Below, piece by piece: positions 14,642-45,819 of a stretch of 64,000 nucleotides of DNA; the first letter of the stretch is position 1; the number at the start of each line of letters is the position of its first letter. A program made the translations under genes and the position numbers. The notes under the pieces are model-generated. The model was not told the origin of the DNA and made no database searches. It worked only from the letters and a program-made list of their open reading frames with translations. Source of the DNA: Escherichia coli 042 (GTDB taxonomy: Bacteria; Pseudomonadota; Gammaproteobacteria; Enterobacterales; Enterobacteriaceae); assembly GCF_000027125.1 (NCBI RefSeq), contig NC_017626.1. One strand, given 5' to 3'.

Positions 14642-15330
14642 CAAATGCGCCTATAAGGCTCTCTTACCAGCCGCGCCCTAACAGGCGCACACGATCTGAC
14701 ATTTGCATCCAACTTCGTTACTTACGGCCCGTAAACGGGCTGCCCGGATAGGGAATCGATAACTGCTCTCCCATTTTATCCTCTTCAAGCTGGTGCTTTA
14801 TGTAATCCTGTATCTTCGCCGTGTTCTTACCCACCGTATCGACGTAATACCCTCTGCACCAGAACTCCCTGTTCCTGTATTTGAATTTCAAATCACCAAA
14901 CTGCTCGTAAAGCATCAGACTGCTTTTCCCTTTCAGATATCCCATAAAGCCTGATACGCTCATTTTGGGCGGGATCTCCACAAGCATATGGATATGATCT
15001 GCACAGCATTCAGCTTCCAGAATCCGTACACTTTTCCACTCACACAGCTTTCTCAAAATACAGCCTATTGCTCTACGCTTCTCTCTGTAGAACACCTGTC
15101 TTCGGTATTTTGGCGCAAATACTATGTGATATTTACAGTTCCATCGGGTGTGCGCTAAGCTCTTTTCGTTCCCCATTGGGACCCCCTTTTGATTTCTTGT
15201 TTGACACTTGCAGTTGCCAGACCGCAAGGTGTTTTAACAAATCAAAAGGGGTTTTAATAACTGGCTCAAAGCTGAAAGCTTTCCGGAACCCCCAGCCTAG
15301 CTGGGGGTTTTCTGTGCACAAAAAATAGGC
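14640..15330 (-). mobile_element. IS200-like insertion sequence (IS200/IS605 family); boundaries approximate
   Basis: About 690 bp between ynaJ and uspE terminators containing a Y1 transposase gene and a terminal hairpin CCCCCAGCCTAGCTGGGGG (about 15287..15305). Confidence 0.55.
14718..15176 (-). CDS. tnpA: IS200-type Y1 (HuH) transposase TnpA
   Basis: Start at internal Met with RBS: MGNEKSLAHTRWNCKYHIVFAPKYRRQVFY..., 152 aa; HuH motif HIHML and catalytic Tyr region. Confidence 0.8.
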   Translation of the reverse strand: MGNEKSLAHTRWNCKYHIVFAPKYRRQVFYREKRRAIGCILRKLCEWKSVRILEAECCADHIHMLVEIPPKMSVSGFMGYLKGKSSLMLYEQFGDLKFKYRNREFWCRGYYVDTVGKNTAKIQDYIKHQLEEDKMGEQLSIPYPGSPFTGRK

Positions 15331-23344: not shown

Positions 23345-23351
23345 AACTGCA

Positions 23352-23446
23352 TAAAAAAATAGAGTCTGTCGACATCCGCCAGACTCTACAGTACACACAG
23401 CAGTGCATCCGCGTCTTAAATCCGGCATGGTCTCCTCTGCGCCGGT
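23352..23446 (-). ncRNA. mcaS: Small regulatory RNA McaS (IsrA)
   Basis: Reverse complement reads ACCGGCGCAGAGGAGACCATGCCGGATTTAAGACGCGGATGCACTGCTGTGTGTACTGTAGAGTCTGGCGGATGTCGACAGACTCTATTTTTTT, matching remembered McaS, in abgR-smrA intergenic region with intrinsic terminator. Confidence 0.7.
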
Positions 23447-26823: not shown

Positions 26824-26945
26824 GCAGGTGAATGCAACGTCAAGCGATGGGCGTTGCGCTCCATATTGTCTTACTTCCTTTTTTGAATTACTGCATAGCA
26901 CAATTGATTCGTACGACGCCGACTTTGATGAGTCGGCTTTTTTTT
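26824..26945 (+). ncRNA. fnrS: FNR-activated small RNA FnrS
   Basis: Sequence GCAGGTGAATGCAACGTCAAGCGATGGGCG... ending in hairpin GCCGACTTTGATGAGTCGGC plus T-run; position between zntB and dbpA. Confidence 0.8.
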
Positions 26946-31246: not shown

Positions 31247-31435
31247 TCACGACGACTGAAGTTTCTCGCAATTAAAATTTATCAGTTTTACTTTCTGCTC
31301 TCTGGAAACGCCTGCTTCTTTTTTACCTGAGAGCATTTTTTCGCATTCTGATTTGGTTAATTTTGTTTTTGAGTACCTTGTCCAGTTAGTAGGAGTGCCA
31401 CCTTCCTTTTCAATAGTGGCGGTAATTTTATACAT
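31247..31435 (-). CDS. ydaC: Rac prophage small protein YdaC-like
   Basis: Start chosen at MYKITATIEK... preceded by GGAGG RBS; start uncertain (in-frame upstream Mets). Confidence 0.55.
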   Translation of the reverse strand: MYKITATIEKEGGTPTNWTRYSKTKLTKSECEKMLSGKKEAGVSREQKVKLINFNCEKLQSS

Positions 31436-42334: not shown

Positions 42335-43021
42335 ATGACCCCAATAAAAATATTTATGACTATTGCTGATTTCAAACGGCCTAAATTGGAGCTCCCAAAC
42401 GGGGCAAACAAACTACTACTGCACTCTTGCTGTGCTCCATGTTCCGGTGAAGTGATGGAGGCGCTTCAGGCCTCGGGAATCGACTATACCATCTTTTTCT
42501 ACAACCCGAACATTCATCCTCAGAAAGAGTATTTAATTCGTAAGGATGAGAATATTCGCTTTGCTGAACAACACGGCGTGCCATTTATTGATGCTGATTA
42601 CGACACAGACAACTGGTTTGAACGTGCCAAAGGAATGGAATGGGAGCCCGAGAGGGGGATCCGTTGTACCATGTGTTTTGACATGCGTTTTGAGCGGACA
42701 GCGCTGTACGCTGCTGAAAATGGTTTCAGTGTGATCAGCAGTTCACTGGGCATTTCACGCTGGAAAAATATGCAGCAGGTTAACGACTGTGGGCGGCGAG
42801 CCGTCGCGCATTATCCGGGCATGGTGTACTGGGATTATAACTGGCGCAAGCAGGGCGGCTCGTCCCGCATGATTGAAATCAGCAAGCGCGAAAAATTCTA
42901 TCAGCAGGAATATTGTGGCTGTGTGTATTCTCTGCGCGATACCAATCTACACCGCAAATCTCAGGGACGCCCTCTTATCAAAATTGGTCAACTCCACTAC
43001 GGTAAAGAAGAGAAGGAGTGA
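42335..43021 (+). CDS. DUF208 / epoxyqueuosine reductase QueH-like protein (putative Fe-S enzyme)
   Basis: 228 aa with Cys motifs [14 protein letters not shown] and EYCGCVYS, as remembered for the QueH family. Confidence 0.55.
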
Positions 43022-43258
43022 TTTTATGGAGCACCTTTCTTATTGATTTCATATTGGCGAGGTAGCGGGAGTTAAGTAAAATTGCTGCGGGTGCTTGAGG
43101 CTATCTGCCTCAGGCATGAACACCAAAAGGCAGATAGAGAAAAGCCCCAGTTAACATTACGCGTCCTGCAAGACGCTTAACATTAATCTGAGGCTCAATC
43201 TATGCTGAACACATGTAGGTTAGCCTCTTACGTGCCGAAAGGCAAGGAGAAGCAGGCT

Positions 43259-43414
43259 ATGAAGCAGCAAAAGGCGATGTTAATCGCCCTGATCGTCATC
43301 TGTTTAACCGTCATAGTGACGGCACTGGTAACGAGGAAAGACCTCTGCGAGGTACGAATCCGAACCGGGCAGACGGAGGTCGCTGTCTTCACAGCTTACG
43401 AACCTGAGGAGTAA
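43259..43414 (+). CDS. hokD: Hok-family membrane toxin (type I toxin)
   Basis: 51 aa MKQQKAMLIALIVICLTVIVTALVTRKDLCEVRIRTGQTEVAVFTAYEPEE matches remembered HokD/RelF; in-frame upstream extension from 43202. Confidence 0.8.
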   Translation: MKQQKAMLIALIVICLTVIVTALVTRKDLCEVRIRTGQTEVAVFTAYEPEE

Positions 43415-43880
43415 GAGACCGGGCGAGGGAGAAATCCCTCGCCACCTCTGATGTATTATGCATCCTCAACGCACCCACACTTAACCAGTTTTGGCGAGTT
43501 TATTTTATCTGTAAATATTTTTATAAAAATAATGCCCACGCACAGCATAAAACAAAAAGTATTACAGATAAAAAAGGAGCGTAATGTGCAGATTTGTTGT
43601 TTTCCATATTTACTCACCTTAATATGATTGATCTTGATAGGATTGTTATTTCAGTGGTTTTCAAATGAGATATTATGGTGATCTGGTAGATTTGCATAAC
43701 ATTAAAATTTAATTTGTTTAACCGCTTTTAATAATAAGCGTTGTTTTTATCCCGGCAATCTGTTGTTTGGTTTTTATTCCATTAAGGTGGGGACTTTACA
43801 CTGGAGCCAGTTTATTTATACTTCATACGTCAGCCTGAACAACTGGCATCTGCTGCACTGCGCCATCGAGAGATTGAGAA

Positions 43881-44480
43881 ATGGCGCATATACAACTGGT
43901 CAAACAAACTTCTTCTGGTTTACTTCTCCCGGCGACGCCGGAGAGTTGCGATTTTCTGCATCAAATCAAAATAGGTGAGTGGATACACGCAGACTTTAAG
44001 CGTGTGCGTAACTACGCATTCCACAAGCGTTTTTTCAAACTCCTGCAACTGGGATTCGATTACTGGACTCCGGTCGGTGGGGCGATCACACCTCGCGAAC
44101 GAGAAATGGTGTTCGGCTTCGTTGATTACCTGTGTGAATCAGTAGGCAGGGAACATACGCCAGCTCTGAGTGATGCCGCGGAACAATATCTGAATACCGT
44201 TGCGACACGCAGAACCCGGGATATGGCATTGCTCAAATCATTTGACGCTTTCCGCGAGTGGGTAACCATTCAGGCCGGATTTTACACCGAGCATTTTTAT
44301 CCTGATGGTAGTCGTGGGCGTCGGGCGAAATCCATCGCGTTTGCGAATATGGACGAAACCGAGTTTCAGCAGGTTTATAAATCTGTACTGAATGTGCTGT
44401 GGAACTGGATTCTGTTCCGTAAATTTTCCTCTCCGGAACAAGTCGAAAATGTGGCCGCGCAGCTACTGGAGTTTGCGTAA
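43881..44480 (+). CDS. Hypothetical nin-region phage protein
   Basis: 199 aa, immediately upstream of YbcO-like gene with stop/start overlap. Confidence 0.5.
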   Translation: MAHIQLVKQTSSGLLLPATPESCDFLHQIKIGEWIHADFKRVRNYAFHKRFFKLLQLGFDYWTPVGGAITPREREMVFGFVDYLCESVGREHTPALSDAAEQYLNTVATRRTRDMALLKSFDAFREWVTIQAGFYTEHFYPDGSRGRRAKSIAFANMDETEFQQVYKSVLNVLWNWILFRKFSSPEQVENVAAQLLEFA

Positions 44481-44770
44481 TGGTGGATTTACGTAAAGCG
44501 GCGCGGGGCCAGATGTGCCAGGTCAGAATCCCTGGCTACTGCAATCACAATCCCGAAACTTCTGTGCTGGCGCATTACAGGTTGGCAGGGACGTGCGGAA
44601 CAGCGACAAAACCACACGATATGCAGGCAGCGATTGCCTGTAACTCATGCCACGATTTAATCGACGGGCGGGTAAAAACCAGCGATTACACCAAAGAAGA
44701 ATTACGCCTGATGCATGCAGAAGGTGTTTTTCGCACGCAAGAAATCTGGAGAAAGGAAGGTTATTTATGA
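44480..44770 (+). CDS. YbcO-like protein (DUF1364, Cys-rich putative nuclease)
   Basis: 96 aa MVDLRKAARGQMCQVRIPGYCNHNPETSVLAHYRLAGTCGT...IACNSCHDLIDGR, close to remembered DLP12 YbcO. Confidence 0.75.
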   Translation: MVDLRKAARGQMCQVRIPGYCNHNPETSVLAHYRLAGTCGTATKPHDMQAAIACNSCHDLIDGRVKTSDYTKEELRLMHAEGVFRTQEIWRKEGYL

Positions 44771-45303
44771 TTTACCCAACAAATACAGGCAAAAGCGGGG
44801 AACACCTTCGTCTCACCACGCTGGAAAGTGTCTGGATTCAGGGAAAACTGCGCATGTGGGGGCGCTGGTCGTATATTGGCGGCGGTAAGACGGGGAATAT
44901 GTTTAACCAGTTGCTGGCGTCAAAAAAATTGACGAAAACAGCCATCAATGAAGCCCTGCGCAGAATGAAAAAAGCGGGAATAGAGAAAGCTGAGCTGGAA
45001 GCGTTTTTGCGAGAGATGATCAACGGCAAGCAAAAGAGCTGGCTGGCGCATTGTACTGATGCAGAGGCACTAAAAATTGATAGTGTTATAGGTGAAGTTC
45101 TGGCGGATCATCCAGGACTACTAAATGTCCTGAGTCAGCGTTATGTGGGGCGAGGGATGAGTAAGAGAAGGATGGCCGAGTTATTAAACGAACAGTACCC
45201 AGAGTGGGCGTTGATTACATGCCGACGTCGTGTTGATCAGTGGTTGCGTGTTGCTGAGTTCATTTTGTATTCACCTATGAGAGAAGCGTTCGATTATGCT
45301 TAA
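44767..45303 (+). CDS. Putative late-gene antiterminator Q
   Basis: 178 aa; last nin-region gene, directly upstream of terminator hairpin, tRNAs and lysis cassette; family assignment from memory only. Confidence 0.5.
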   Translation: MIYPTNTGKSGEHLRLTTLESVWIQGKLRMWGRWSYIGGGKTGNMFNQLLASKKLTKTAINEALRRMKKAGIEKAELEAFLREMINGKQKSWLAHCTDAEALKIDSVIGEVLADHPGLLNVLSQRYVGRGMSKRRMAELLNEQYPEWALITCRRRVDQWLRVAEFILYSPMREAFDYA

Positions 45304-45665: not shown

Positions 45666-45741
<76 letters not shown>

Positions 45742-45744
45742 TAT

Positions 45745-45819
<75 letters not shown>

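Follow-up and report, generated by a model that had tools for sequence, protein, structure and literature searches.

Predicted hok/mok/sok type I toxin-antitoxin module in the nin region of a Rac-site lambdoid prophage of Escherichia coli 042

We analysed a 64,000-nucleotide stretch of Escherichia coli 042 DNA (NC_017626.1; hereafter the window) and found that positions 43054-43508 very probably constitute a complete hok/mok/sok type I toxin-antitoxin (TA) module. It belongs to the HokD/HokW subgroup and is a moron located in the nin region of a lambdoid prophage at the Rac site. Every sequence element is present, intact and conserved, and the locus is near-identical to one that has been tested experimentally. 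We infer that it is also expressed, processed and able to kill in the strain that carries it. The locus is an ordinary member of a thoroughly described family, and its annotation should cover the toxin, the leader ORF and the antisense RNA of the whole hok/mok/sok module and not, as in RefSeq, a hokD CDS by itself.

The initial annotation had placed the locus at 43180-43440, which is the middle of the unit. The promoter and leader begin further upstream (at 43054 and 43089, respectively) and the fbi box and terminator remnant reach approximately 43508, so that the whole unit (~43054..43508) is wider than that interval. Its elements were mapped by reading the window against the R1 model, with tac, fbi, ucb and dcb as defined in PMC9841398, and against one R1-type plasmid locus. 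All of the R1-type elements could be placed: the hok promoter, tac, the metastable hairpin, ucb, the mok Shine-Dalgarno (SD) sequence, dcb, the hok SD, fbi, and a minus-strand Sok gene with its promoter. Conservation was counted across 66 distinct full-length relatives.

Toxin and leader reading frames

The ORF listing gives a plus-strand ORF at 43202..43414 that opens with ATG and encodes 70 amino acids. An internal ATG at 43259, in the same frame and 19 codons into this ORF, yields a product of 51 amino acids (MKQQKAMLIALIVICLTVIVTALVTRKDLCEVRIRTGQTEVAVFTAYEPEE) that is identical to K-12 HokD, and the hok CDS (43259..43414, plus strand) differs from K-12 hokD by one synonymous base in the alignment. 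The product matches Pfam PF01848 HOK_GEF (E 3.5e-23, model positions 1-42 of 42) and PHROG 251 ‘MokW-like host killing’ (E 7.7e-33), and the NCBIfam Hok subfamily is also recovered (E 1.2e-12; below the curated cut-off with the 70-aa Mok fusion as query). Identity to HokD and the Pfam and PHROG matches rule out a chance ORF, and the 51-aa toxin frame proposed in the initial annotation is intact. Its hokD-type assignment also holds, since the protein is identical to HokD and a 100%-identical copy of the locus in another strain is annotated by RefSeq as ‘type I toxin-antitoxin system toxin HokD’. Overexpression of the HokD CDS has been found to be toxic (bioRxiv 10.1101/2025.08.07.668861).

The transmembrane and cysteine pattern expected of a Hok protein is preserved. 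The hydrophobic stretch comprises residues 7-25, Cys15 and Cys30 are encoded in the DNA, and the third conserved position is occupied by Tyr47, as in K-12 HokC, HokD and HokE, in which this residue is reported to be edited to Cys. The Tyr47 codon (UAC, 43397..43399, plus strand), read directly from the sequence within GCUUACGAA, is the same as in K-12 and is the site reported to be edited in K-12 hokD mRNA, where TadA-mediated A-to-I editing changes Tyr47 to Cys at a low level (PMC12214031; bioRxiv 10.1101/2025.08.07.668861).

The in-frame extension from 43202 that the initial annotation had remarked on is the mok frame, annotated as mok in phage 933W. This leader ORF (43202..43414, plus strand) has 70 codons, lies in frame with hok and shares its stop codon, which is the layout of the annotated mokW of 933W. 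In R1, mok presumably occupies a frame other than that of hok. The arrangement seen in the window is shared by 45 of the 66 relatives, while in 15 of the 66 the mok stop and the hok start overlap as ATGA. The mok SD (GAGG, 43190..43193, plus strand), which can be read 8 nt 5′ of the mok ATG, is invariant across the 66 relatives and aligns with that of R1; the hok SD (AAGGAG, 43244..43249, plus strand) can likewise be read 9 nt 5′ of the hok ATG.

The hok transcript, the Sok antisense gene and RNA folding

A consensus scan identified the hok promoter at 43054..43082 on the plus strand (9/12 matches), with a -35 element TTGGCG at 43054-59, a 17-nt spacer and a -10 element TAAAAT at 43077-82. The promoter ends 6 nt 5′ of the point at which the Rfam leader match starts, which is also the position of the R1-type +1. 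That match, to RF01794, covers the full-length model at 43089-43264 (plus strand) with 119.6 bits against a gathering score of 59. The match carries the label ‘sok’, and we rejected the idea that it marks the antisense gene: it lies on the hok-sense strand and extends into the hok start codon, and therefore models the hok mRNA leader and not Sok. The real Sok is a partial reverse complement of this leader. A stem-loop ‘insertion’ of 16-19 nt relative to the Rfam consensus was also considered as an oddity and set aside, being the majority form among HokD-type loci.

We place the full-length hok mRNA at 43089..43508 (plus strand), its 5′ end by homology. Its 3′ end is uncertain and would lie at or past the end of fbi (43476), possibly at a degenerate terminator. 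The latter is an intrinsic terminator remnant (CCAGT-TTTG-GCGAG followed by TTTATTTTAT; 43485..43508, plus strand) recognized by comparison with the relatives, 57-62 of 66 of which have CCCGC-TTCG-GCGGG followed by a T-run directly after fbi. Three substitutions relative to this family consensus have broken two of the five stem pairs and weakened one; the repaired form would read CCCGCTTCGGCGGG. A terminator scan made no call at 43485..43508. Because the terminator after fbi is degenerate, both the mRNA 3′ end and the timing of processing are uncertain.

The initial annotation expected a Sok-like RNA opposite the leader, and the gene can be placed on the minus strand at approximately 43210→43138 through its homology to sokW. 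The predicted Sok RNA (43136..43210, minus strand) has its 5′ end near 43210 and its 3′ end at 43136-43140; the GenBank sokW feature of 933W maps to window positions 43140..43210 with two differences in 71 nt. In the predicted fold (-36.5 kcal/mol, z = -6.4) the first 9 nt form a free 5′ tail, after which come a long hairpin (43186→43151 core) and a U-rich GGGGCUUUUCUCU tail, and a 75-nt version was folded as well.

A search of the minus strand for the Sok promoter, which had been suggested as a comparison, was also successful. The promoter (43217..43245, minus strand), read from the sequence, consists of a -35 element TTGCCT at 43245→43240, a 17-nt spacer and a -10 element TAACCT at 43222→43217. 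It is weak by consensus, the -10 matching at three of six positions, and a generic promoter consensus scan did not pick it up; the call is made on homology to 933W, in which the promoter region is identical. We take its position to be equivalent to that of the R1 Sok promoter. In sokW, mutation of the -10 element abolished antitoxin activity (PMC8621323).

The fold-back elements that a comparison with other hok/sok loci should reveal (tac, ucb, dcb and fbi) are all present. The tac (translational activator) box (GGGUGCUUGAGG; 43089..43100, plus strand), recognized from the folds and by alignment with R1 tac, is invariant in the 66 relatives and has three alternative partners: its local partner in the metastable hairpin (43107-43117, plus strand, from the folds), fbi and ucb. 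The ucb or anti-SD box (AAGCCCCAG; 43142..43150, plus strand), supported by the pair list and the Rfam consensus structure, has the mok SD as its partner in the closed form and tac in the open one, tac/ucb being paired in 99.6% of cells. Constrained folds place dcb (AGCCUC; 43222..43227, plus strand) opposite the mok SD region in the open form, and the SD/dcb pairs are invariant in the 66 relatives. The fbi (fold-back inhibition) box (CCUCAACGCACCC; 43464..43476, plus strand), taken from the pair list, forms 12 bp with tac, with one bulge, in the minimum free energy (MFE) fold. This helix is paired in 99.5% of cells across the 66 relatives, differs from the R1-type helix by one compensatory C:G to U:A double change, and is worth 14 kcal/mol, as judged from a fold in which fbi was barred from pairing.

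The GC-rich hairpin noted directly downstream of hok proved to be a real and conserved 3′-UTR stem-loop (43422..43443, plus strand) of 9 bp with a GAAA loop. Its arms (GGCGAGGGA, 43422-43430; TCCCTCGCC, 43435-43443) begin 8 nt past the hok stop codon, the fold aligns with the R1-type GC hairpin, and it is paired in 99.5% of cells across the 66 distinct relatives, with G-U/A-U/G-C variation at one pair. We rejected the view that it is a terminator because no T-run follows it; it aligns with a conserved stem-loop, and fbi and the terminator remnant lie beyond. By position it would be the last stem-loop of the 3′-processed, translatable mRNA. The role of the R1 3′ GC hairpin has been described (PMC9841398).

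The MFE fold of the full-length hok mRNA contains both the tac/fbi and the ucb/mok-SD helices (z = -7.56 against shuffles). For the 3′-truncated RNA, constrained folds put the closed form (metastable hairpin with ucb/SD) and the open form (tac/ucb, SD/dcb and the target hairpin) 0.2-3 kcal/mol apart, and such near-equal modelled energies are as expected for a switch. The unconstrained MFE fold of the truncated RNA slightly favoured the closed form, the open form requiring constraint. Among the 66 distinct full-length relatives, pairing reaches 98-100% for tac/fbi, tac/ucb, SD/dcb and the 3′ stem-loop; the 5′ hairpin shows compensatory changes, as does the long hairpin at 43149-43187 opposite the Sok stem-loop. 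A covariation test on the same relatives gave only a modest signal, the sequences being ~94% identical and the key boxes invariant; it supports conservation and does not prove structure.

Relatives and prophage setting

The closest characterized relative is hokW/mokW/sokW of the Stx2 phage 933W and Sakai prophage 5 (Sp5; AF125520, AP000422), with 93.8% nucleotide identity over window positions 43069-43487. The promoter-to-fbi layout is the same, mok is in frame with hok and has 70 codons in both, and in 933W all three features (hokW, mokW and sokW) are annotated in GenBank. HokW and the window Hok are identical at 47 of 51 residues, the four differences being C-terminal (FTAYEPEE in the window, FVDYESEK in HokW). 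The hok -10 element reads TAAAAT in the window and TAGAAT in 933W, and the 933W sequence past fbi is unrelated to that of the window. The settings also differ: the 933W locus is on the opposite strand, lies near the far prophage end and adjoins a very large ORF, whereas the window locus is a nin-region one, with the replication genes on one side and Q on the other. Experiments have established the hokW-sokW pair as a type I TA system (Takada et al., 2021; PMC8621323). Upon RecA-dependent induction Sok is lost and Hok is made, and release of Sp5 is doubled (PMC8621323).

The alignment with the plasmid-borne R1/IncF hok/mok/sok (parB) covers tac and its metastable partner, ucb, the mok SD and ATG, dcb, the hok SD, the Tyr codon within GCUUACGAA, the 3′ GC hairpin and fbi, all in the same order. 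The alternative pairings predicted for the window are those of R1, whose mechanism is set out in PMC9841398. The two Hok proteins share 42% identity, the stem-loop opposite Sok is ~19 nt longer in the window than in R1, mok is in frame with hok in the window, and the window locus is carried in single copy by a prophage.

The initial annotation was right that K-12 hokD (relF) lies in a different prophage, the cryptic prophage Qin, where it is downstream of relB-relE. It encodes the identical 51-aa protein, and its DNA is near-identical to the window from the hok SD (~43246) to ~43505, including the 3′ stem-loop and fbi; it too occupies, in general terms, the part of a lambdoid prophage that separates the immunity/replication side from Q. 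K-12 hokD keeps the strong terminator that the window allele has lost. It lacks the hok promoter, tac, ucb, the mok start, the Sok gene and the Sok promoter, and has relB-relE in their place. In the window the leader is present, and the gene upstream is QueH-like and not relE. Because homology starts at the hok SD and everything upstream is unrelated, K-12 hokD is a 5′-truncated derivative, and it has been described as inactivated by rearrangement (PMC12214031). The window copy is the common intact form and K-12 hokD the odd one; the textbook K-12 gene is what truncation has left of a module that most wild lambdoid prophages carry in full.

The literature describes an enrichment of hok loci in prophages. 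The host element in the window is a lambdoid prophage at the Rac site, in agreement with the initial placement of the locus inside a prophage: the window and the Rac-site prophage of strain 190 are collinear, with ~98% identity. The order common to both runs ttcA-intR-xisR-ralR-recT-recE-kilR-sieB-racR-ydaS/T/U/V in its first part and Q-lysis-terminase-capsid-tail in the rest, and FnrS, McaS and RalA are at their expected places in the window. The hok neighbours, named from PHROGs, are a QueH-like gene upstream (42335-43021) and NinB-like, DUF1364 and Q-like genes downstream (43881-45303), all in the same orientation, which gives the nin-region order QueH – hok – NinB-like – DUF1364 – Q. An NCBIfam scan of the neighbouring genes returned nothing. 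An AT-rich spacer of 370 bp lies 3′ of hok. Other exclusion genes, namely sieB, ralR/RalA and one for a Ren-like protein, are also found near hok in the prophage.

A member of the same prophage family, ‘Escherichia phage Rac’ (MN652886), carries the locus at 92.4% identity with mok and hok annotated, at the same nin-region position (… hok – rem – DUF1367 – DUF1364 – Q). It has rem 3′ of hok where the window has the spacer, its upstream neighbours also differ, its Sok-target haplotype is not that of the window, and a GGTC variant of the pre-SD hairpin shifts its mok frame.

Relatives are widespread. Matches were found in 4727 of 5426 complete E. coli genomes, at a median of two places per genome, while the exact allele is rare (at least 99% identity in 6 of 5144 matching records); strain 190 (NZ_CP020520) and strain 2009C-3133 are examples of its carriers. 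More than 574 IMG/VR viral contigs hold a relative, and the identical protein is encoded by every one of the best 80. Among 81 viral contigs with the window's Hok protein the leader is kept in 73, with the relE junction in 4-5 and another leaderless junction in 2. Most related viral contigs have the nin-region setting in the same orientation, with YdfU, Rem or a NinB-like gene downstream.

Mechanism, role and alternative readings

By homology with R1, the hok promoter would direct synthesis of a stable mRNA from near 43089, in which the 5′ tac box would be held during transcription in the local hairpin at 43091-43117. In the finished mRNA, tac would pair with fbi (43464-43476) and ucb would cover the mok ribosome-binding site, so that neither mok nor hok would be translated and Sok would be unable to bind. 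Slow 3′ trimming towards the stem-loop at 43422-43443 would then remove fbi, upon which tac would switch to ucb, the dcb stem would present the mok SD and the hairpin targeted by Sok would form. The short-lived Sok RNA, made from its own promoter, would pair with the mok start region, blocking mok translation and committing the duplex to degradation. Once Sok had decayed, mok would be translated into and through the hok start, and the 51-aa Hok would insert in the inner membrane and collapse it.

The most likely role of the module is that established for hokW-sokW in Sp5, in which induction would bring about loss of Sok and production of Hok, leading to faster lysis and phage release. The phage-release effect was obtained with a copy that belongs to another phage and sits elsewhere in it. 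Studies of induction and of the timing of lysis in Rac-type prophages should consider the module, because it may contribute as hokW-sokW does in Sp5. Prophage stabilization and exclusion of other phages are alternative roles. That a working module serves mainly in abortive-infection defence or prophage addiction, and not in helping its own phage to lyse the host, is a possible reading, if not the one we would expect. T4 plating was lowered by R1 hok/sok when a multicopy plasmid carried it, as cited in PMC8621323; the annotators of 933W labelled hokW ‘prophage maintenance’; and the neighbouring exclusion genes listed above would fit a defensive role. However, a recent survey reports no enrichment of hok near defence systems, and the only direct test of a near-identical prophage copy gave a positive effect on phage release (PMC8621323).

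We consider it unlikely that the module is intact in sequence and functionally silent or decaying, persisting by riding on a mobile nin-region cassette. Such a module would cause no killing and stabilize nothing, like the chromosomal hok loci reportedly tested by Pedersen and Gerdes. In favour of this reading are the terminator hairpin, which is degraded by its three substitutions, the rarity of the allele, and K-12 hokD, which demonstrates that members of the family do decay. The preprint bioRxiv 10.1101/2025.08.07.668861 cites chromosomal hokA, hokB and hokC as having given no post-segregational killing. Against silence, both promoters, tac, ucb, dcb, fbi, both SDs, both start codons and the CDS are intact, these elements are identical or near-identical to those of the experimentally active hokW-sokW, and tac/fbi and SD/dcb are strongly conserved in the 66 relatives. 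The degenerate terminator is not disqualifying, since the 933W locus works without that canonical terminator.

It is highly improbable that hok is an orphan toxin like K-12 hokD, free of antisense control and expressed at the tail of upstream QueH-like/early rightward transcripts: the same Hok protein is so arranged in K-12 Qin and in 4-5 of the 81 viral contigs, and hok is co-oriented with the upstream early genes, but the 170-nt leader missing from K-12 is present here with its high-scoring Rfam match, and the locus has its own hok promoter and a sokW-homologous Sok gene and promoter. Read-through transcripts are nevertheless plausible in addition to hok's own, given this co-orientation.

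For the complete module that we favour, diversity in the Sok-recognition segment is the one observation that might repay further work. This segment (43195..43220, plus strand), which spans mok codons 1-6 and the target hairpin, is complementary to the Sok 5′ end. Variability in these 26 nt is far higher than anywhere else in the HokD-type loci, which are otherwise near-identical: pi is 0.31, with 18 haplotypes among the 66 sequences, compared with pi of 0.05-0.13 in the flanking leader. Changes in its stem appear to preserve the target hairpin.

Two linked ideas follow, which we put forward tentatively and rate as rather doubtful. The diversity could reflect selection for mutually orthogonal Sok specificities among the several lambdoid prophages resident in one E. 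coli genome, in which case each prophage would control its own toxin only. In addition, in the nin-region setting, sense transcripts that run on from the early rightward operon after induction would meet the convergent Sok transcript head-on and titrate it. This would be a simple way to account for the RecA-dependent disappearance of Sok and burst of Hok reported, and so far unexplained, in hokW-sokW. A comparison of haplotypes within genomes is uninformative on the first idea, because the four same-genome locus pairs, all of which differ in 43195..43220, stand against a chance expectation of 90% differing among random pairs. The haplotype of the window in this segment is that of 933W except for one base just before the mok ATG.

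Diversity of the Sok-recognition segment

Nucleotide diversity in the hok leader is concentrated in one short segment. Across the 66 distinct full-length HokD-type loci of alignment A3, the interval corresponding to window positions 43195-43220 (alignment columns 107-133) has a pi of 0.31 and 18 haplotypes, while the flanking leader in the same loci has a pi of 0.05-0.13, and outside this hotspot the loci are approximately 94% identical. The hotspot extends from just 3' of the mok Shine-Dalgarno (SD) sequence to the dcb box, and therein lie mok codons 1-6, the complement of the Sok 5' end, and the spacer that separates the Sok -10 element from the Sok start. The target hairpin appears to be kept despite these substitutions, and diversification of Sok specificity may be the cause of the hotspot.

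The Rfam model RF01794 ('sok antitoxin') matches the window at 43089-43264 on the hok-sense strand, with the match ending at the hok start codon. What RF01794 in effect models here is the hok mRNA leader, not the antisense RNA, and strand calls that are based on it would assign Sok to the wrong strand.

Structural variation among hok relatives

The relation between the mok and hok reading frames varies among the relatives in alignment A3, with L017, L018 and L026 among the loci that differ from the window. An in-frame 70-aa Mok-Hok fusion is encoded by 45 of the 66 loci, including that of the window, and in a further 15 loci the pre-SD hairpin carries a +1 indel, as a result of which mok ends at a TGA that overlaps the hok start codon (ATGA). 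What is conserved seems to be translation as far as the hok start, rather than the Mok protein.

Leaderless hokD genes show two distinct junction types: the relE-hokD arrangement, as in the K-12 Qin prophage (L002, 5120-5420, minus strand), and a junction with unrelated DNA upstream of hokD. The loci that show these junctions are L002 and, among viral loci, L054 and a few more. Both break at almost the same point, immediately 5' of ACAGGAGAAGCAGGCT, which suggests either that they descend from one truncated ancestor or that the hok SD is a hotspot for recombination.

Downstream, most relatives carry an intrinsic terminator after fbi, which in the window (43485-43508) is degenerate through three stem substitutions. 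Related 'TTTATTTTATCTGTAAATA' alleles represent this terminator at intermediate stages of decay.

Prophage neighbourhood and other RNA genes

Immediately 5' of the hok promoter is a prophage-borne QueH-like gene (epoxyqueuosine reductase, DUF208; 42335-43021), an auxiliary tRNA-modification gene of the nin region that belongs to PHROG 3217, a family without an assigned function. Between hok and the NinB-like gene is an AT-rich spacer of approximately 370 bp (43500-43880), in which no convincing ORF was found; in related phages this place is occupied by rem or ydfU. The spacer contains a terminator-like site (43723-43750) and, 5' of the NinB-like gene, a strong promoter-like site (TTTACA-16-TATACT; 43795-43822).

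The prophage that carries hok also has a second type I toxin-antitoxin system, RalA/ralR. The RalA antitoxin RNA (31251-31429; Rfam RF02694, 215 bits) adjoins ralR, as placed by collinearity with the Rac-site prophage of E. coli strain 190. Genes for a Thr(TGT) and a Gly(TCC) tRNA occur at 45666-45819, 3' of the Q-like antiterminator gene and 5' of the lysis cassette. The host sRNA genes STnc490 (15186-15309), McaS (23351-23446) and FnrS (26824-26941) lie to the chromosomal side of the prophage, and their placement fits the abgR–ttcA region around the Rac attachment site in K-12.
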